13,944 nucleotides of DNA from an uncultured Pseudomonadota bacterium (lineage in GTDB: Bacteria; SAR324; NAC60-12): positions 1 to 13,944 of the forward strand of contig CAJWCD010000100.1 in NCBI GenBank assembly GCA_913020725.1. The letters are read 5' to 3'. The number at the start of each line of letters is the position of its first letter. The first letter of the stretch is position 1. Below, one piece after another: positions 1-12,697 of the stretch. The notes under the pieces are model-generated. The model searched no databases, was not told where the DNA came from, and worked only from the letters and a program-made list of their open reading frames with translations. Position numbers and translations under genes: made by a program.

Positions 1-204
1 CAGGCTCTCCGCTCTTCTGGAGCAAATCCGGCTTTTGCCCGCTCACACTCTCCAAGCACTCTGTCTCTCAGGAAACGGGGCGCTTTGAGTTATTGCGGAA
101 CTATCATTATTGGTTTCCACTCACGGCAATTCCCGTTAGACTGACCATTCGATTTTAGGAGTGAAACCCCGTCCAAAACAATGTATCTCAAAAAGGAAAC
201 CGAA

Positions 205-795
205 ATGAGTGAGTTGACAACGAATCGGGAAACGGCGGTAAACACGCTGCTTGCAAAAGCGGTCGTCATTCAAAAGGAGAGGGCCATGAGCCGCAGTTCC
301 GTTGAGCGCATCCGGACGGCGCTGCTGGAACTTGCGATGCAGCGCGAATTTTGGAACGAAACCGATTACCCTGCGCCAGCAGGTGACGAACGCCAGAACC
401 GCTTCCTGATCGGCCAGGGCGAAAGCGGCGTCTCGCTCTACCTCAATGTGCTGTGTCCCGGCAAGCGGATTCCGCCGCACAACCACACCACCTGGGCCTG
501 CATCGCAGGCGTGGAGGGCGTGGAGGAGAACACATTCTTTGACCGTGTGGACGACGGCTCCGTTCCCGGTCGTGCCGAGATCACAACGCGAGAAGTCGTG
601 GTGGTGGGACCAGGGACAGGCATCGCCATGCTGGGTGAGGACATCCACAGCGTTGAGATCAAGGGCAGTCAAACCATCCGACACCTGCATTTCTATGGGC
701 GCCCCTTGGAAACGCTCGACCAGCGGATTTTCTTCGATCAGGAAGCCGGAACTTACCAGCTCATGGAAATGAGCACCAAGACCAAGACGCCATGA
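205..795 (+). CDS. Cysteine dioxygenase-like (thiol dioxygenase) cupin protein
   Basis: PPHNHTTW and EDIHS give a 3-His metal site; HLHFYG sits at the SxHxY position. AAGGA RBS precedes ATG 205 (ORF track starts at 181). Confidence 0.85.
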   Translation: MSELTTNRETAVNTLLAKAVVIQKERAMSRSSVERIRTALLELAMQREFWNETDYPAPAGDERQNRFLIGQGESGVSLYLNVLCPGKRIPPHNHTTWACIAGVEGVEENTFFDRVDDGSVPGRAEITTREVVVVGPGTGIAMLGEDIHSVEIKGSQTIRHLHFYGRPLETLDQRIFFDQEAGTYQLMEMSTKTKTP

Positions 796-802
796 GCTTT
801 CC

Positions 803-2407
803 GTGCAGAAGATAGCCCAAATCATTCCAGAAACGCTCAAGCAGCGGCTGACGACTGGTGCTGAAATCGCCTTGCTCGATGTGCGAGAATACGGGGAGTA
901 TGGCGAAGGCCACCCAATTTTTGCGGTCAACCTGCCGTACAGCCGCCTCGAAGCCAAGGCAGCGCGGCTCCTGCCCTGCCGCTCAGCGCCCTGTGTGCTG
1001 CTCGATAACGGCGACGGGGTCGCAGAAAAAGCGGCTCGTCGGCTCGGAGATCTGGGGCACTCCAACCTGGCGATTTTGGACGGGGGCGCCCCTGCATGGC
1101 AAGCCGCAGGGTTCACGCTCTACCAAGGCGTGAACGTGCCCTCCAAGGTGTTTGGAGAATTGGTGGAGCAGCAGTTTGAGACGCCGTCACTTGCGGCAGA
1201 AGACCTCAAGGCGATGCAGGAGCAGGGGGAATCGGTCGTGGTGCTGGACGGTCGTTCGCCCAAGGAATTCAGGAAAATGGCAATTCCAGGGGGGCGCTTC
1301 TGTCCAAATGCAGAATTGGGCTACCGCCTCCCCATGCTGGTTCCGGACGAAAACACTCCCGTCGTGATCAACTGCGCGGGGCGCACCCGTTCCCTGATCG
1401 GCGCACAGACGTTGCTCTCATTGGGGTTCCGGAACAAAATCTTGGCCTTGCGCAATGGCACCCAGGGCTGGCGACTTGCAGGATTTGAACTCGTGCATGG
1501 GGCTACGCCCACCGTGCTTCCGGAACCGGACGAAGCCCAGCTTGCAGCCAGTCGCATGCAAGCAAATGCCTTGCTCGTCAAAACCCAACTGCAAACCGTA
1601 GACGGCGAAACCCTGCAAACTTGGCTCTCCGATGACCGCCGCACCACCTACCTCTGCGATGTACGAACCGCCGAAGAATATGAGCGCGGGCATTTCACAG
1701 AAGCGCTCCATGCTCCGGGCGGACAACTGGTGCAGGCCACCGATGAGTGGGTGGCGGTGCGCAACGCCCGTATTGTGTTGACCGATGACACACAACTCCG
1801 TGCTGCAACCACCGCGATGTGGCTGCGGGCCATGGGGCATCAGGTTTGGGTGCTGGACGAGGATGCCTCACAAGCTCCGGAAACCAGTGCAAATGCAGCG
1901 TCTGATTCATCGACACTGCTGCCAGCGCTGGAACCTCATGAGTTGTCTGCACGACTTGCTGCCGGAGCAATTTTGCTAGATGTTTCGCCAAGCATGAACT
2001 TCCGGAAGGCGCACATCACCGGAGCAAACTGGGCCATCCGGCCCCGGCTGGATCAGCTTGACCTCGGCGGGGCATCTGAGATCATTTTAGCAGGAGGAGA
2101 TGTTTCCGCGATTTCCGGAATCGCTTTTGATCTACAGCAAAAATACGCAGTCCAAGTGTTGTGTTTACAAGGTGGGCCGGAGGAGTGGGCTGCGGCTGGC
2201 TTGAGCGTGGTCGCGACTCCGGAAATCCCATCCGATTCGGAATGTCTCGATTACCTGTTTTTTGTCCACGACCGACACGACGGCAATCCCGACGCCTCCC
2301 GGCGTTACCTTGCTTGGGAACTTGGCTTGGTCGCGCAGTTGGACGAACAGGAACGCTCGGTCTTCTCCCCGGATTCCATTCCACCAACCCTTGAGGAAGC
2401 AATATGA
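803..2407 (+). CDS. Multi-domain (four-domain) rhodanese-related sulfurtransferase
   Basis: Repeated rhodanese signatures (LLDVRE, VLDGRS, LCDVRT, LLDVS; LDGGAPAW, LRNGTQGW, LQGGPEEW). Active loop CAGRTRS in domain 2. GTG start is uncertain. Confidence 0.9.
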   Translation: MQKIAQIIPETLKQRLTTGAEIALLDVREYGEYGEGHPIFAVNLPYSRLEAKAARLLPCRSAPCVLLDNGDGVAEKAARRLGDLGHSNLAILDGGAPAWQAAGFTLYQGVNVPSKVFGELVEQQFETPSLAAEDLKAMQEQGESVVVLDGRSPKEFRKMAIPGGRFCPNAELGYRLPMLVPDENTPVVINCAGRTRSLIGAQTLLSLGFRNKILALRNGTQGWRLAGFELVHGATPTVLPEPDEAQLAASRMQANALLVKTQLQTVDGETLQTWLSDDRRTTYLCDVRTAEEYERGHFTEALHAPGGQLVQATDEWVAVRNARIVLTDDTQLRAATTAMWLRAMGHQVWVLDEDASQAPETSANAASDSSTLLPALEPHELSARLAAGAILLDVSPSMNFRKAHITGANWAIRPRLDQLDLGGASEIILAGGDVSAISGIAFDLQQKYAVQVLCLQGGPEEWAAAGLSVVATPEIPSDSECLDYLFFVHDRHDGNPDASRRYLAWELGLVAQLDEQERSVFSPDSIPPTLEEAI

Positions 2408-3237
2408 CGGAAGCCCTCAACCTGCAAAGCCGGGTGACGCTCAGTGATGGCAACACGATGCCGCTGTTCGGACTCGGTGTCTGGGCGGCCAACCCCGGAC
2501 AGGAAACTCAAGATGCGGTTTCGTGTGCCTTGGAAGTTGGCTATCGCCACATTGACACTGCCTCCATGTACGGCAACGAGCAGGATGTGGGCAGCGCCCT
2601 GAATGCCTGCGGGGTTCCCCGCAACGAAATCTTTGTCACCACCAAGGTCTGGGAAACCGAGCAGGGTTATGAACCCACACTGCGGGCTTTTGGGCAAAGT
2701 CAGCAAAAACTGGGGCTGGAGTTCGTGGACCTCTACCTGATCCACTGGCCTGTGGAGGGACAACGAGTTGACACATGGCAGGCACTGGAGCGTTTGCAGA
2801 ATGAAGGGCGAGTCAAATCCATTGGGGTGAGCAATTTCTCTCCAAGCCACCTCCAAGAGATCTTCGAGAGCGGAAAACAGCGTCCGACGGTCAACCAGAT
2901 CGAACTCAGCCCGTTTCTTCAGCAGCGCACGATTGCTGATTTTACACGCTCCGCAGGCATCCACCTCACCGCCTACTGTCCGCTCGCCCGTGGAGAACGC
3001 TTCTCGCACCGCAGTTTGCAGGACATCGCCGAGCAAACGGGTAAAACTCCAGCGCAAATCATGATCCGCTGGGGTTTGCAGCAAGGTCAAACCATGATTC
3101 CGAAATCCGTCAATCCGGTGCGTATTCGTCAAAATGCAGATGTTTTTGACTTCACCCTTAGCGACAAACAAATGCGTCTACTCGCTGAACTGGACGAGGG
3201 CTTTCGTTTTTGTCCAAATCCACTGGATCAGCCCTAA
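2404..3237 (+). CDS. Aldo/keto reductase (2,5-diketo-D-gluconate/glyoxal reductase-like)
   Basis: GYRHIDTASMYGNE, FVTTKVW, DLYLIHWP, SIGVSNF and IPKS; D/Y/K/H tetrad present. ATGA overlap with the rhodanese stop and GAGGA RBS. Confidence 0.95.
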   Translation: MTEALNLQSRVTLSDGNTMPLFGLGVWAANPGQETQDAVSCALEVGYRHIDTASMYGNEQDVGSALNACGVPRNEIFVTTKVWETEQGYEPTLRAFGQSQQKLGLEFVDLYLIHWPVEGQRVDTWQALERLQNEGRVKSIGVSNFSPSHLQEIFESGKQRPTVNQIELSPFLQQRTIADFTRSAGIHLTAYCPLARGERFSHRSLQDIAEQTGKTPAQIMIRWGLQQGQTMIPKSVNPVRIRQNADVFDFTLSDKQMRLLAELDEGFRFCPNPLDQP

Positions 3238-3256
3238 ATCTACTTCCGGAAAAATC

Positions 3257-4138
3257 ATGCCTGAACGCCGCAGTCACCGCTCTTTTATGAGTTACATTGA
3301 CAAGTCCCGCGAGTATTATGCCGCCCACGGTTATGACCAGCCCTACCAGTGGCCGTATCATCACGAGGTGCCCTTTGCGACCCTTAGCAAACCTTTGTCG
3401 GAATGCACGGTCGGGGTGGTTTCGACGGCAAGTTTGCCGAGCAGGGCGGAGCAGGTTGCGGCCTCATTCCGGCCCCCCAAGCATCCCTATGCCATTTCCG
3501 CAAATCCCATTCCTGAGTCTTTGTACACGCAGGATGTTGCTTGGGACAAGGAAGCCACACACACAGACGACATCAACACCTACCTGCCACTCCAGCGACT
3601 ACAGGAGTTTCAGCAGCAAGGCCGGATTGGGAAAAACTCCCGCCGCTTTTATGGAGCAGCCACAACTTACAGTCAGCGTCAAACCCTCGAAACCGATGCT
3701 CCCGAAATTCTCGCATGGTGCCGGGAAGACGAAGTGGATGTTGTGCTGCTGGTCCCCCTCTGACCGGTTTGCCACCAAACCGTGAGTTTGGTCGCTCGGC
3801 ATTTGGAAGCAAATGGAATTGCCACGGTGGTGCTTGGCTCAGCCCGCGACATTGTGGAGGAATGTGGAGTGCCGCGTTTTGTCTTCACAGATTTTCCTTT
3901 GGGAAATCCCTGCGGCAAACCGTGGGAGGTGCCCATGCAGCAAGCGGTGATCGGCACCGCCCTCGACTTGCTGGAAAAGGCGTGGCAGCCCCGCACCACC
4001 GTGCAGGCGCCGTTTGTGTGGACTCCGGACAAGAATGACCACTGGCGCGAACGCTTCATGCGCGTGGACGACTCCAATCGCGCAACCCTCGCCCAAGCCG
4101 GAGAAGAACGCCGGGAGCGTCAGCAAGCCCAGCGGTAA
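3257..4138 (+). CDS. Glycine/sarcosine/betaine/D-proline reductase selenoprotein B (GrdB/PrdB)-family protein, Sec at TGA 3761-3763 (U169, UxxC)
   Basis: ORFs 3134-3763 and 3782-4138 are in the same frame and separated by one TGA. Read-through gives EDEVDVVLLVPL-U-PVCHQTVSLVARHLEANGIATVV, the family active-site region. N-half has PFATLSKPLSECTVGVVSTA and DINTYLPLQRL; C-half has VPRFVFTDFPLGNPCG. 293 aa from ATG 3257 (alternative ATG 3287). Confidence 0.88.
3764..3799 (+). promoter_or_regulatory. Bacterial SECIS element (candidate)
   Basis: 7-bp stem ACCAAAC(3774-3780)/GTTTGGT(3786-3792), loop CGTGA with G in position 2, and 17 nt between the UGA and the loop. Lower pairing GC/GC and CCGG/TCGG. 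Confidence 0.75.
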
Positions 4139-4168: not shown

Positions 4169-5644
4169 TCAGCCCTGCGCGGCGTTGACTCCAGCCTGCC
4201 TCCCAAAGACGGAGCCGGACATCAAGCCCGTGCCTCCGGGATAATTGAAGTAAAAGAGGCCGCCGACCAACTCGCCTGCTGCGTAGAGACCCGGAATCGG
4301 CGCATGGTCATCGCTGATCACTTGGCTCGTTTTAGGATTGATCCGCAGTCCTCCGAAGGTAAAGGTGATCCCACATGTGATGTGATACGCCTCAAACGGT
4401 CCCTCGTCAATCGTGTTGGCCCAGTTGGACTTGGGCACTTCCAAACCCTCCGTGCCGCGTCCATCCTTGACATTCGGATTGAACGGAACCTCGCTACAAA
4501 CGGCAGCGTTGTAGCGTGCGATCTCGGTAAGAAATCCGGACTTGTCCACACCTTCCATTTTGTCTGCAAGCGTTTCCAGTGTTGGAGCCGAAACTTTGGA
4601 AACCTGCTTGATGCGGTACTCATCGCGCAAAAGATGTGTCACCTTCTGGTCGAACACCTGCCAAGCAAACTGATCCGGTTGTTCCAGCACAACCCGGCCA
4701 TACTTTGCGTAAGTGTAGTTCCGGAAGTCGGCCCCCTCGTCCACAAACCTCCGACCCCTTGCGTTGACCATGATGCCGAACGGATACGAGTGTTTCTGGA
4801 AACCATCGCCCACGGAGAGATCGCCGTATTCCGGAGCGTTGTAATCCCAGCCGACCGCATGGCATCCGGACCAGTTTCCGCACGATGAGGCTCCGATCTC
4901 GAGCGCCATACGGATGCCATCTCCGGTGTTGAAGGCCGTGCCCCGCACTTTCGCCATTTCCCAACCCGGACCCAAATAGCGGGTGCGCCATTCAACATTG
5001 GATTCAAATCCACCCGCCGCCAACACCACTGCATTGCCACGAATTTCATGAAGTTCGCCGTCCTTGCGAACCTTGACCCCCGTGACCTTGTGGCCATCAA
5101 ACAACAACGAAACCGCCCGTGCGTCATAGCGAATTTCAATTCCAGCCTTGCTTGCCAGTTCGGTTTCACGCTCCACCAGTCCGGGACCACCGCCCCACGC
5201 CTCCAGTGTCAGGCCACCCCAGAACTGGAAACGCCCCTTGACCTTGAACGCCTGCCGACCATAGATCGGCAGAAAACGGAGACCGTGCGAGTGCATCCAA
5301 CCCAGCGTTTCCCGCGAGCCCTGCACCAACTGTTCGCAGAGGTCCGGATCAGTCCGGAAGCGTGTGATGCGGAACATGTCATCGAAAAATTGCTCGGTGG
5401 TGTAAGTGCCAAAATCCGTGATGTCCAACTGCTCTTGCGAAAGCTCCGGACAGAGGGCGCGGATGTCCTCCACGCCATCGTAAGCAAAACGAATCGCCCC
5501 GGCAGTGAAGCGGCTGTTGCCACCGCTCAATTCCTGCGGAGCGCGTTCCAGCACCAGCACAGAGGCTCCGGATTCCCGTGCCGCTAGTGCTGCACAAAAA
5601 GCCGCGTTCCCGGCACCAATGATGATGACGTCGAATTCGTTCAT
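4169..5644 (-). CDS. tcuA: FAD-dependent tricarballylate dehydrogenase TcuA-like flavoprotein
   Basis: DVIIIGAGNAAFCAA FAD motif, SGGNSRFTAG, RGTAFNTGDG, ITFTFGGL and GLYAAGELVGGLFYFNYPGGTGLMSG. Start at ATG 5644 (MNEFD). Family call; substrate unproven. Confidence 0.8.
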   Translation of the reverse strand: MNEFDVIIIGAGNAAFCAALAARESGASVLVLERAPQELSGGNSRFTAGAIRFAYDGVEDIRALCPELSQEQLDITDFGTYTTEQFFDDMFRITRFRTDPDLCEQLVQGSRETLGWMHSHGLRFLPIYGRQAFKVKGRFQFWGGLTLEAWGGGPGLVERETELASKAGIEIRYDARAVSLLFDGHKVTGVKVRKDGELHEIRGNAVVLAAGGFESNVEWRTRYLGPGWEMAKVRGTAFNTGDGIRMALEIGASSCGNWSGCHAVGWDYNAPEYGDLSVGDGFQKHSYPFGIMVNARGRRFVDEGADFRNYTYAKYGRVVLEQPDQFAWQVFDQKVTHLLRDEYRIKQVSKVSAPTLETLADKMEGVDKSGFLTEIARYNAAVCSEVPFNPNVKDGRGTEGLEVPKSNWANTIDEGPFEAYHITCGITFTFGGLRINPKTSQVISDDHAPIPGLYAAGELVGGLFYFNYPGGTGLMSGSVFGRQAGVNAAQG

Positions 5645-5823
5645 GAGATTTTTTGAGGGTAGCGCGGAGTGGCACACCCGCGCTCACCAGACATGAGCAC
5701 GGGTACGCCACCCGTGCTACCGAAATACTTGACGAGTGCCGCAATCAGTGCGGCTTGAGCGCTGAGCAGGGCAGCAACCCACTTGACGATCTCCACTTTG
5801 GTTTCCGCGAAACCCGTGTCCAT
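5641..5823 (-). CDS. Small (60 aa) membrane-anchored protein resembling the C-terminal tail of DUF1640/CCDC90-like proteins; possibly a remnant
   Basis: GGAGG 7 nt before ATG 5823. FAETKVEIVKWVAALLSAQAALIAALVKYF is a hydrophobic tail. Its TGA overlaps the tcuA ATG (ATGA). Confidence 0.5.
   Translation of the reverse strand: MDTGFAETKVEIVKWVAALLSAQAALIAALVKYFGSTGGVPVLMSGERGCATPRYPQKIS
5659..5720. repeat. Inverted pair of GTAG-type REP-like palindromes (REPIN-like)
   Basis: Copy 1 (+, 5659-5686) is GTAGCGCGGAGTGGCACACCCGCGCTCA. Copy 2 (-, 5720-5694) is GTAGCACGGGTGGCGTACCCGTGCTCA. Each is a hairpin, with a 7-nt spacer between them. Confidence 0.7.
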
Positions 5824-6000: not shown

Positions 6001-6789
6001 TCAGGTGGTGCGTCCCCAGAAGTACTGGCGCACTGCGTCACTGTTGGTTTCGTTGGGCTGTTCGGTGTAGCACAACACCGGCACCAAACGCGAGACACTT
6101 CCGGAAATTTCGGTGACACGGTGCAGGGTTTGGCGTCCTCCGAAAATCAGCAGCGAACCTTCCGTGAAGGGCAGACGGCAGACACCCTCGCGCTCACCAC
6201 CCAAAATGCGACTAACGAGGGTTTGTTCCTCCGGAAGTCCGCGGATCTGCGGAACGTATTCGAAAGCGCCACCGCACTCCGGAGATTGCAGCATGAGCGT
6301 GGTGGTGAACTCAGATTCGTCAAAGTGCCAGCCGTGCTTGCCGCCTGCCCGGAAGACATTGATGGAGCAGGCTCCCAATGGATCGGCAAAGTAATGCAAG
6401 CGAGGTTTGTCCAAGACCCGCCTGATCAGTTCCTTGAGGGGTTCCCACTCGTAAAGGGTACGCAGCAACCCATGCTCAGGAAGCAAATCGTAGGCGACCG
6501 AGCCGACCTCGGTTTGCTCCGGAGCCTTGGCGGGGTTTCCGTTTTTGTGGTCCCCGCCCTTTTCCAGATACACCGTGTGGGTGCCCCGCACAAAATAGGC
6601 TTTCCCCTGAAGTTTCCGGGCCTCCTCCTGAAGGGCTGTCAACGCACCGGGTTTGAGAAACTGCGGCAGGTGACAGAGTCCGTCCGCACGGTATTGAGCA
6701 GTCAGTTTGGCGGCAAACCGACTCCCGGAGGCGGTGTCCAGTTTCATCAAAGGGTAGCGGTCAAGGGCGACCAGTGCTGCGGGGTTCAT
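6001..6789 (-). CDS. Fe(II)/2-oxoglutarate-dependent oxygenase, BesD/HalD-like fold with HxD site (probable hydroxylase)
   Basis: HGWHFD, then GGAFEY, TLHRVT and SRLVPVLCY give the HxD...H...R motif. GGAG RBS before ATG 6789. The ORF-track extension to 7128 overlaps queA. Confidence 0.8.
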   Translation of the reverse strand: MNPAALVALDRYPLMKLDTASGSRFAAKLTAQYRADGLCHLPQFLKPGALTALQEEARKLQGKAYFVRGTHTVYLEKGGDHKNGNPAKAPEQTEVGSVAYDLLPEHGLLRTLYEWEPLKELIRRVLDKPRLHYFADPLGACSINVFRAGGKHGWHFDESEFTTTLMLQSPECGGAFEYVPQIRGLPEEQTLVSRILGGEREGVCRLPFTEGSLLIFGGRQTLHRVTEISGSVSRLVPVLCYTEQPNETNSDAVRQYFWGRTT

Positions 6790-6917
6790 GGCAAGTCTCC
6801 GAAAAAAGTGGCATTGGTGTCCAATTCCCATTCTAGTGCGCTTCTCTCGCGTTTCGCAATATTCCGGAATTTCATAGCACTGCGCTTCCGGGGGATGAGC
6901 CGTCGGCGTTGATTTCT

Positions 6918-10136: not shown

Positions 10137-10305
10137 GTAGTGCCCCGGTCCGGCAACGGAACGCCTGTGTGCCCAGTTCATAGTACGACTTCCAAGAACA
10201 GGTGGTTCTCCCCCGCCATCACCCTCGGAACATCCTGCCTGCCCGGAAACAGGCAGGGATGCGCCCCCGCTGATCGTTGTGCAAAAACGATCTCAACGGG
10301 GATAC
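10137..10305 (+). other. Unidentified GC-rich structured element (candidate ncRNA or mobile-element end)
   Basis: Four hairpins in about 170 nt: 10149-10160, 10195-10209, 10231-10261 and 10265-10301. No credible coding frame. Confidence 0.4.
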
Positions 10306-10326
10306 TCATTTTTCAGTTATAAAATT

Positions 10327-11139
10327 ATGACGAAAAAATCAAATAATCTACACCATTCTATTTCTCTGGAGTGGAAATATCCAAACCTAGCAAAGCCAGA
10401 ATGCGATGGCGGTTATTGCTATCTTTTTCAACGGCGTATTTCATGTTATTTCAGCATTTATTTCATGAAACTTGGATTATCACCATCTCAGGCTACTTTG
10501 GTGGATTTTATTTTCGGTTGTCTGGCTGCTTTAGTTCTGGTTTTTCAATATTACCTGCTTGCTGTTATTTTTATCTGGTTTTTTGGTATTTGGTCTTGTG
10601 TGGATGGTGAAATAGCTCGTTTATCAGACAAATGCAGCCTGTTCGGTGATTTTTTCGACACCATGACCGATAGAGTCATTGAAGTCTCAGTAATCATCGC
10701 TTTTTATTGGTCGATTTATTCTGTTGACAGTCAAGTAGATAAATACCTTTCTCTTGCCTTCATCGTCTATTTGGGTGGAGTCTACTTATTGGCCGTTTCT
10801 TCAGAAAAATATCGCTCCACGGGTCGGGGTAACTATCCAAAAAAGAAAATGGAACCCTTATTCTCTTGGGTGTCTGCAGGCAGTGACATTAGGTTACTTT
10901 GGCTAAGCATTGCAATTTTTGTTTTTTGGATGACAGAAAATCAAAAAATCATAACTATTCAGATAGGCGCTCTTTCAGTAATTTTCTTTATTAATTTCAT
11001 TGTTCGTATGTTCAAGATAAATAACCTCCTTTCGTTAAATACGACTTCTCCTTTACAGGTCATAACCTCCGCCATAAACCCCATTAAAAATGATCTTAAA
11101 ATAATGAAAATCGCTCAAGTAAATCTAATAAACGATTAG
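10327..11139 (+). CDS. CDP-alcohol phosphotransferase family membrane protein (DIPP-synthase-like N-terminus)
   Basis: SCVDGEIARLSDKCSLFGDFFDTMTDR fits the DxxDGxxAR...GxxxDxxxD signature with D1 replaced by S. Also KPECDG..FQRRIS, LSPSQAT and several hydrophobic helices. Confidence 0.88.
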   Translation: MTKKSNNLHHSISLEWKYPNLAKPECDGGYCYLFQRRISCYFSIYFMKLGLSPSQATLVDFIFGCLAALVLVFQYYLLAVIFIWFFGIWSCVDGEIARLSDKCSLFGDFFDTMTDRVIEVSVIIAFYWSIYSVDSQVDKYLSLAFIVYLGGVYLLAVSSEKYRSTGRGNYPKKKMEPLFSWVSAGSDIRLLWLSIAIFVFWMTENQKIITIQIGALSVIFFINFIVRMFKINNLLSLNTTSPLQVITSAINPIKNDLKIMKIAQVNLIND

Positions 11140-11271
11140 TATAAAAATGCAAATTTCCTCACCTCAACTGCTTTCAATTTTTACTAAAAATCAAAAGTAC
11201 ACTCAATTTAAATCCAGTTCTTCCATGACATCAAGCACCCCTACTGTATCGGATCAGAACAGCGGGTGCAA

Positions 11272-11955
11272 ATGACGACATCATGTTTGCATTACTTTAG
11301 CGAGATTGGATTCTTAAAAGAAAAACCAATTGCTTTAAAACTACTCAAAAATGTCTCAGAAATTCTGTCTGCGGATAACGTTGCTTATTGTTTAATGTTC
11401 GGAACTTTATTGGGAAAACTTCGGCATGATGATTTTATTCCTTGGGATGATGACATTGACATCATTATTTTTGATGTTGAAAAATTTGAATCACTTTGCA
11501 TTAAGAAACTTAAAAAAATCGGCTACACCACTTTAATCGACCGACGACTCATCAAAAACTCAGATTCTTCTTCCTCTGAAGAAAAATGGTTACATTGCGG
11601 TTATCGAATATACCCGGATGATGGGTTTCCGATCCCAGGACAAAAATGGAAATTCCCTTGGGTTGGTGTTTGGGAACCCGCATATACAGGGGATGACTTT
11701 ACCTTAGCGCCAGAAAAAAATATCTATCAAAAATCAAATTTCTTTCCGCTGCAAACAGTTCAATTTCAAGGATTTCCAGTTTTGATTCCAGTTGATTCGC
11801 CTAAAGTTCTCACTAGTTATTTCAAGACAGATAATTGGATGGAATTCTGTGTCCCGCCAGATTTAAATCATAGAGAATACAAAAAAACTCATGCTCCTCT
11901 CTCTTATTTACCAGTAGCGGAGGTGATGGCGTATTTAAGTGATCTTGAAACTTAA
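11272..11955 (+). CDS. LicD/fukutin-family phosphotransferase
   Basis: YCLMFGTLLGKLRHDDFIPWDDDIDII plus C-terminal FFPLQTVQFQGFPVLIP and YFKTDNWM. Start GTG 11266 or ATG 11272. Confidence 0.88.
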   Translation: MTTSCLHYFSEIGFLKEKPIALKLLKNVSEILSADNVAYCLMFGTLLGKLRHDDFIPWDDDIDIIIFDVEKFESLCIKKLKKIGYTTLIDRRLIKNSDSSSSEEKWLHCGYRIYPDDGFPIPGQKWKFPWVGVWEPAYTGDDFTLAPEKNIYQKSNFFPLQTVQFQGFPVLIPVDSPKVLTSYFKTDNWMEFCVPPDLNHREYKKTHAPLSYLPVAEVMAYLSDLET

Positions 11956-11989
11956 AAATCAGACTACCGAGGTGTGAATACCTTTTTAT

Positions 11990-12697
11990 ATGTTCTATCC
12001 TTCGATCCAAAATTTTCTATCGACTATTCAGGAAAGTTGTCTTTTATTAGCTAGGCACGGAGAAACCGACTGGAATAGCTTGGGATTGGTGCAAGGACAA
12101 CAAGATCGACCTCTGAGCCCCATGGGATATCAACAAAGAAAGAATCTTTTCTTTCGATTGTTTTCCGTTCCGCTACATCATATTTTCACCAGCAGTCTCC
12201 AACGCACAATCCAAACAGCGCTTCCTGTCAGTGAGGAAAAAGGCATCGAACTTGAAAAAATAGTTTCTTTCAACGAAGCTAAACTTGGAGTATTCGAAGG
12301 TGAAAATAAACTCAATTTTTCTGACTCATTTTCTAAAAATATATACAATACTTTTCTCCATGATGAAATCAATATAGCACTTCCCGGTGGGGGTGAAAAT
12401 TTAAAGATGGTGCATGAGCGTATTAAAAAACCTTTAAAAAAAGTTCTGCATGCCACTAAAAAAGGAAATGTGCTTTTAATTGCACATCGTAATGTCAATA
12501 AAATGATCCTTAAAAATTTATTAGGATTAACTTTTGAAGAAGGATACTGTATTGAGCATAAAAACGATTGGTTGTACATCTTTTTTCCTACTTCAACTCA
12601 GTTGTTTCTTGTAAAAATAAATGGACCAATAGGAACCATTGAGATCATTCCTGGGTACGAGACCATTGATTCAAAAAAATCTGATTTCAAGCGATAA
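11990..12697 (+). CDS. Histidine phosphatase (phosphoglycerate mutase-like) family protein
   Basis: LLARHGETDWN, QGQQDRPLS, SSLQRTIQTA, GGEN and LLIAH. Confidence 0.92.
   Translation: MFYPSIQNFLSTIQESCLLLARHGETDWNSLGLVQGQQDRPLSPMGYQQRKNLFFRLFSVPLHHIFTSSLQRTIQTALPVSEEKGIELEKIVSFNEAKLGVFEGENKLNFSDSFSKNIYNTFLHDEINIALPGGGENLKMVHERIKKPLKKVLHATKKGNVLLIAHRNVNKMILKNLLGLTFEEGYCIEHKNDWLYIFFPTSTQLFLVKINGPIGTIEIIPGYETIDSKKSDFKR

Follow-up and report, generated by a model that had tools for sequence, protein, structure and literature searches.

The proteins closest to the one described here are PrdB of D-proline reductase and the GrdB, GrdF and GrdH selenoproteins. In the catalytic cycle proposed for D-proline reductase, a cysteine thiolate cleaves a selenoether to leave a selenenylsulfide, and the section of the review that sets out this cycle calls the proline reductase mechanism hypothetical (PMC10298544). 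Selenoproteins named 'PrdB' have also been catalogued from the sea. The Sargasso Sea survey lists 42 with a UXXC motif, the third most abundant selenoprotein family there, with grdA and grdB occurring once each (Zhang, Fomenko & Gladyshev 2005, PMC1088965), and the GOS survey counts 235 'PrdB' selenoprotein sequences and 110 Cys homologs (Zhang & Gladyshev 2008, PMC2398784). The accessible text of these two surveys treats the family as proline reductase and makes no mention of a missing PrdA or of a glutaredoxin partner. Five 'proline reductases', with no GrdA or GrdB, appear in the available part of a paper on gutless-worm symbionts (PMC1976440), and the operon section of a 2026 review names prdB-prdC and no PrdB-glutaredoxin pair (PMC13188914). 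A function for the family was not found in the available portions of PMC1794560 and bioRxiv 2022.07.06.499078, and literature searches, which covered few subscription journals, returned no functional study of PrdB-like or GrdB-like homologs, of their structure, of a link to glutaredoxin or nrdH, or of selenocysteine in SAR324.

The locus analysed here lies in a window of 13,944 nucleotides, the whole stretch of DNA that was analysed, from a SAR324 genome that is 93% complete. The features of interest are as follows.

181..795, forward strand: mercaptosuccinate-dioxygenase homolog (thiol dioxygenase cupin; PDB 8VNI, E 2.8e-56), first gene of a probable operon
803..2407, forward strand: four-domain rhodanese, starting 7 nt after the dioxygenase
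2404..3237, forward strand: aldo/keto reductase; it overlaps the end of the rhodanese gene by 4 nt, and 19 nt separate it from the start of the selenoprotein gene
3257..4138, forward strand: PrdB-like (GRDB superfamily) selenoprotein gene, 293 aa, one open frame with predicted Sec169
3761..3772, forward strand: UGA (predicted Sec169) and the other codons of the U-P-V-C motif, Cys172 being the likely resolving cysteine
3774..3792, forward strand: SECIS-like hairpin, 7-bp stem 3774-3780/3786-3792, loop CGUGA 3781-3785

The first-pass annotation had described two ORFs that share a frame and are broken only by TGA 3761, and translation of 3257-4138 (+) confirmed this: the sole interruption is the TGA at 3761-3763, residue 169, in the context DVVLLVPL-U-PVCHQTVSL, and the terminal TAA follows at 4136-4138. 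Standard gene calling yields a first ORF ending at 3763 and a second at 3782-4138, in one frame, and databases store the first as a truncated 168-aa protein. The bare TGA/UxxC pattern proves little alone because nine TGAs in the window's genome pass the same crude length and motif test (at least 168 open codons before, at least 124 after, and Cys at +3). What raises TGA 3761 above chance is homology, namely the conservation of C169 and C172 and the identity on both flanks. The same genome also holds a truncated duplicate (C92:2225-2464, -) of the first 80 codons, 69% identical, which ends soon after; an 80-aa form is also present in the database cluster.

A database homolog search returned 4,398 proteins, and among the 120 listed, column 169 was Cys in 118 and Trp in one, the remaining entry being the truncated self. 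In alignment A1, C169 and C172 were both present in 118 of 118 full-length homologs, with a mean identity of 58.6% over the 30 residues before the TGA and 80.7% over the 30 after. Full-length database entries are Cys-biased by selection; TGC was confirmed in two plasmid genes. At the DNA level the codon was TGA in 133, TGC in two and CGA in one of 136 loci, some of them near-duplicates, which comprised SAR324 relatives, the best 80 of 553 metagenome matches and samples of two other groups. Restricting the set to at least 36% identity left 121 loci from several phyla (118 TGA, 2 TGC, 1 CGA). The CGA locus is a metagenome homolog (L142) with an intact hairpin, reflecting either an error or a loss of Sec.

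Genes for selenocysteine insertion were found in the window's genome, where selA, selB, selC and selD all scored over cut-off; its tRNA-Sec was also found by ARAGORN, and its selD carries a TGA of its own. Among 41 genomes, selA was matched in 40. Two of the checks proposed in the first-pass annotation, a Cys or Sec at position 169 with conservation on either side and the presence of sel genes in the genome, came out in its favour. Contigs from other public runs span the TGA codon unchanged (X1 record 8, covering 3254-4077 with four differences at 3391, 3456, 3514 and 3931; X20 record 29, with four differences at 3931, 4031, 4041 and 4136), and because they agree the TGA is not an assembly error. 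RNA-library contigs also cover the selenoprotein gene, as contigs that cannot show transcription or co-transcription.

The SECIS-like hairpin lies 11-29 nt downstream of the UGA. Its stability alone is unremarkable, with a z of about -1.6 (range -1.1 to -1.8, and +0.3 for one of the stretches folded). The pair 3778/3788, formed by the third base of a Gln codon and the first base of a Leu codon, was the top mutual-information pair; in 104 distinct sequences it is G-C in 96, A-U in six, G-U in one and A-C in one. In the window it is A-U, a change that is compensatory and synonymous, and the A-U form also occurs on separate branches (L049, L052, L085), where related sequences are not independent. 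Codons +4 to +9 vary very little at their synonymous positions (Ser is AGT in 86 of 93), and the hairpin is absent from the two TGC genes. The G-U in the loop presumably agrees with the bacterial SECIS consensus.

Taken together, the in-frame UGA at 3761 very likely encodes selenocysteine. A real stop, whether in a pseudogene or in a gene that is split, or an error of sequencing would suit the ordinary stability of the hairpin, but is vanishingly improbable: the codon is TGA in 118 of 121 loci from several phyla, synonymous sites are frozen, the Sec machinery is complete and independent contigs concur. The earlier reading of the locus as a single 293-aa selenoprotein that gene callers split is supported by homology, TGA conservation, the hairpin and the sel genes.

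Assignment to a family was less straightforward. The protein passed the Pfam GRDB profile (PF07355) narrowly, at 24.9 bits against a gathering threshold of 22, and in the ESM Atlas a Cys homolog has GRDB clusters as its neighbours, at 0.95. It fell below the cut-off of the PrdB equivalog TIGR04483 (94.5 bits against 300) and below those of the GrdB/F/H profiles (27-48 bits against 65-800). A quick tree search was run on 110 rows, with duplicates left out and with 24 metagenome loci that have no glutaredoxin or MerB neighbours included, 22 of them drawn at random. The window's protein was placed in a 90-row clade (SH-aLRT 100) apart from 20 shorter PrdB-like rows, and Cys forms were scattered among Sec forms. 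Judged by profile score and tree position, the protein does not qualify strictly as a GrdB or PrdB subunit; of the first-pass assignment to the GrdB/PrdB family, membership of the GRDB superfamily holds and strict PrdB or GrdB identity does not.

PrdB proteins of the TIGR04483 type (Clostridia, Ligilactobacillus, Enterococcus) share with the window protein a homologous core, the Sec column and UxxC. Those from annotated prd operons are 25-26% identical to it, with 26% over 229 core columns. Compared with them, the window protein has about 50 more residues, with an aromatic extension at its N-terminus and a helical one at its C-terminus, and the MGGGG loop of PrdB is replaced by a T-Y-S-Q-R segment in its family. 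In contrast to prd hosts, the window's genome has a cytochrome c oxidase and no prdA, prdD or prdE that was found. The GrdB/GrdF/GrdH proteins (TIGR01917, TIGR01918, NF040794, NF040795) match in their C-terminal half, at profile positions about 208-428, and are about 430 residues long against 293; GrdA and GrdE were not found in the window's genome. A Cys form from Alphaproteobacteria (WP_207415257.1, WP_035710215.1) is nearer, being 44-45% identical, stand-alone and inside the 90-row clade. It has TGC instead of TGA, lacks the conserved hairpin and is labelled in RefSeq as 'glycine/sarcosine/betaine reductase selenoprotein B family protein'; literature searches found no functional characterisation of it.

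The AlphaFold model (pLDDT 90) predicts a strand at 162-166 and a helix at 170-185, which would place residue 169 at the helix start. Outside the motif, Y21, Y30, W32, Y138, S139, T143, W255 and W263 are invariant. PDB sequence searches with the protein and with the alignment gave no match, Foldseek gave none at E<=0.001, and VIA-align gave only generic LacI-type and SDR matches (Z 9.3, rmsd 9.7 over 144 residues). No thioredoxin-fold entry was among the top 50 fold matches, the best of which were generic alpha/beta domains; this lack of a solved structural relative does not show a new fold. A second, shorter PrdB-like selenoprotein (L047; C35:4844-5623, +) is encoded in the window's genome, with U-G-L-C, 32% identity to the window protein and a hairpin of the same kind after the UGA; its clade is found widely across the window's family, also without PrdA.

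The partner subunits were sought with PF09338 (the GrdE/PrdA family) and PF04723 (GrdA). Since searches of the window's genome alone hit no control genome, they were repeated over relatives, where controls matched: profile searches found neither family in the window's genome or in 24 same-family genomes, and each was found in 3 of 16 sister-family genomes. The window protein (P0001) itself matched 20 of the 24 same-family genomes at E<=0.001, many of these matches being the shorter paralog. With real PrdA, PrdD, PrdE and a GrdE-like protein as queries, tblastn gave no match in the window's genome at E<0.01, and the same queries do match the control locus L072; PrdC gave only weak partial matches in the window's genome. 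PF09338 was missing from five of five carriers of another phylum, in a search in which no control matched. Among 151 genomes of the Acidimicrobiales class (the class of G042), five have a close homolog and three have PF09338, with no overlap. In one genome, G025, grdA and grdE adjoin a separate GrdB-like match on contig C103, and the PrdB-like copies of this genome lie elsewhere. The control locus is of interest in itself: in Peptoclostridium acidaminophilum plasmid NZ_CP007453.1 (L072:4600-6699) the reading frame of the annotated prdB extends upstream through about 430 codons that are 47% identical to PrdA. This is apparently a natural fusion of PrdA and PrdB, for which the plasmid table gives prdB only.

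The first-pass statement that the usual partners are not in the window is therefore upheld and extends to the genome, where prdA, prdD, prdE, grdE and grdA were not found. A true D-proline or glycine/betaine reductase subunit, with partners in the unassembled part of the genome, could be argued from the genome not being closed, from a proline-racemase-family gene at C42 (32%) and from sources that call the homologs 'PrdB'. Already largely refuted, this reading is highly improbable in view of the same absence in all 24 same-family genomes and the five carriers of another phylum, the TIGR04483 score, the separate clade and the replaced MGGGG loop. By these comparisons the window protein very probably acts without pyruvoyl subunits.

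Upstream of the selenoprotein gene, the spacing of the three forward-strand genes makes 181-4138 a probable operon, ending in the selenoprotein gene, in the window's genus. The related genome G001 keeps the gene order of dioxygenase, rhodanese, aldo/keto reductase and selenoprotein. In the unrelated locus L146 a dioxygenase-rhodanese pair lies 4 kb from the PrdB-like gene and is convergent with it. No dioxygenase match at E<=1e-25 was found in the nearest relatives G019, G055 and G059, whose protein is 72-73% identical, and in 12 other genomes of the phylum that have a dioxygenase its gene is not beside the PrdB-like gene; the link to the dioxygenase is specific to the genus. The msdo genes of Advenella and Variovorax lie in clusters that also carry a rhodanese and a C-S lyase (cystathionine beta-lyase), according to the part of PMC5373536 available. 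No lyase gene was seen between 181 and 4138. This context hints at a functional link of the dioxygenase to the selenoprotein. The thiol dioxygenase, together with cytochrome c oxidase subunit I in the genome, agrees with the earlier remark that the neighbours include O2-dependent enzymes.

No widely recurring neighbour emerged from ORF clustering across about 100 loci, and gene context was mostly scattered and monocistronic. When TGA was read as Sec, and only then, a YruB/NrdH-like glutaredoxin gene was revealed directly downstream in 8 of 121 loci, 100 of which have at least 450 nt downstream; plain ORF clustering missed it because the glutaredoxin gene is split by its own TGA. The eight fall in two phyla, the window's (L034, L056, L057, L058, L061, L055) and another (L179, L180), and the motif is UxxC in seven and CxxC in L055. 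Its start overlaps the upstream stop in three of five checked (L055, L057, L058). In 88 genomes of the phylum the five best glutaredoxin matches all adjoin a PrdB-like gene, including the sole one in the window's family. In the quick tree the glutaredoxin loci belong to the two subclades that branch off first, so the pairing may have been present in the ancestor and lost in the branch that holds the window. At 113 of 121 loci, among them the early-branching L059, L060 and L160 and six paralogs, the dedicated gene is absent, and it was not found in the window's genome, which has two ordinary glutaredoxin-family genes.

Other direct redox neighbours were CMD/AhpD-like (L053, L054), SelW-like (L112) and, by sequence appearance, OsmC-like (L160). 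A 4Fe-4S ferredoxin-like gene, so labelled by motif appearance, lies directly upstream in two loci from Acidimicrobiales-class genomes (L168, L170). Further hidden selenoproteins among the neighbours were sought by an all-against-all comparison, in which the matches listed were mostly wrong-frame noise. Some Cys-form members are fused to an AMP-dependent acyl-CoA synthetase (P0271, P0274, P0125-P0127) or to an APH/fructosamine-kinase domain (P0272, P0273; Alcaligenaceae labels); as a clue to function these fusions were set aside, being lineage-specific and indicating no single pathway, and those with LysR and CoA-transferase resemble artefacts of frameshifts. Viral contigs held no relative of the window protein, and a genome contig scan with a single query gave only two loci.

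A stand-alone PrdB-like two-electron reductase, likely acting on a small sulfur-containing acid, is put forward tentatively as the role of the protein. With the aid of the hairpin 11-29 nt downstream, SelB would almost certainly read the UGA, and the product would in all probability work on its own, with no pyruvoyl subunit. As that subunit is absent, the substrate would have to be reactive by itself. By homology with proline reductase, the U169 selenolate would probably attack the substrate and C172 would then attack selenium, so that the reduced product is released and a selenenylsulfide remains. The gene neighbours make it reasonably likely that a small redoxin of the glutaredoxin/NrdH type would re-reduce the selenenylsulfide, a dedicated one in early-branching members and a general one in the window's genome. 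The substrate in the window's genus might be organosulfur, either a disulfide or a thioether or thiol on the carbon adjacent to a carboxylate, and might be processed jointly with the upstream thiol dioxygenase and rhodanese; the operon gives a slender hint in this direction.

This organosulfur-acid model was ranked ahead of two other functions. The same U169/C172 cycle could serve a general antioxidant or repair enzyme that reduces peroxides, sulfoxides or protein disulfides and belongs to no dedicated pathway. The scattered, mostly monocistronic context and the glutaredoxin, CMD, OsmC-like and SelW-like neighbours would fit such a role, as would the several PrdB-like paralogs per genome (up to six) and the abundance of the family beside Prx, Trx and SelW selenoproteins in the surface ocean. 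It is nevertheless rather unlikely, given a fold search headed by generic alpha/beta domains rather than thioredoxin folds, invariant Tyr, Trp, Ser and Thr residues that suggest a specific pocket, and characterised relatives that, in the part of the review available, all cleave C-N bonds of small molecules (PMC10298544).

GrdB/PrdB chemistry without pyruvoyl activation, that is, reductive C-N, C-S+ or C-halogen cleavage in a betaine, sulfonium or halo-acid such as glycine betaine, proline betaine, dimethylsulfonioacetate or haloacetate, is a somewhat weaker candidate still. It draws on the PrdB core homology and on conserved Tyr and Trp in the extra N- and C-terminal parts, which could form a putative cation-binding cage. 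Betaine and fluoroacetate systems use an unprocessed partner, as the available part of PMC10838667 describes, but these precedents still have a GrdE-type subunit and GrdA/C; moreover, no betaine or choline transporter cluster recurs among the neighbours, and GrdH is not consistently the best Grd match. Binding or reduction of a metal or organometal (Hg, As) through U169/C172 was suggested by a MerB-like protein directly downstream in L075, L115 and L172; since these form one small clade and no mer or ars gene recurs elsewhere, this is quite improbable. Extending the organosulfur-acid model to a separate class of single-subunit selenoenzyme, with PrdB-type Se-C chemistry lacking a pyruvoyl partner, ancestrally linked NrdH-like selenoglutaredoxin recycling, and C-S cleavage of marine organosulfur acids that feed the SAR324 thiol dioxygenase and rhodanese, would be speculative, and is judged unlikely as a whole. 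The MerB-like genes themselves carry in-frame TGAs, two in L075:3555-4265 and three in L115:1548-2258; their proteins, including that of L172, score below the SaoL and MerB cut-offs and possibly form a multi-Sec family.

The first-pass annotation had called the protein a hidden selenoprotein, probably with a different and undescribed role. That its kind is hidden or undescribed is not supported, given the 2005 and 2008 catalogues, in which the family is the abundant marine 'PrdB'. UPVCHQ has 86 matches in Dataset S1 of the 2008 survey as available, including a clear family member (PMC2398784), and the first sequence of that dataset, compared by eye as a single sequence, has the YY..GY..Y.W N-terminal signature and the 17 residues after U as in the window protein. 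Between this marine UxxC family (PF07355) and the window protein there is no difference of kind, and the protein is a new member of a known, functionally uncharacterised marine selenoprotein family. A different role is a fair inference, as no paper describing one was found; it applies to the whole widespread family and not to this locus in particular.

The family ranges over SAR324, Acidimicrobiales and deltaproteobacterial lineages, with the Cys form in Alphaproteobacteria. Databases name its homologs 'D-proline reductase PrdB' or 'glycine reductase', and these labels can lead to a false inference of Stickland fermentation in aerobes. For the window gene itself the result is a correction of annotation, and the wider importance lies in the family, whose function is made directly testable by the lack of partners, by the link to a redoxin and by the sulfur operon. 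A homolog that has one subunit and a known redoxin would also be a convenient system in which to study the selenoether cleavage that is hypothesised for glycine and proline reductases.

Several further observations were made in passing. The window's genome has a UGSC-type selenoprotein candidate with a hairpin (C175, near 3603, +). Within the window, a TcuA-family flavoprotein at 4169-5677 (-; NF006130, 591 against 369) is convergent with the selenoprotein gene and kept in G001, and a HalD-like Fe/2OG halogenase-family gene lies at 6001-6912 (-), downstream of queA. A low-GC island at 10279-12697 (+), about 35-40% against 57%, carries CDP-alcohol phosphatidyltransferase, LicD and histidine phosphatase genes and was probably acquired horizontally.
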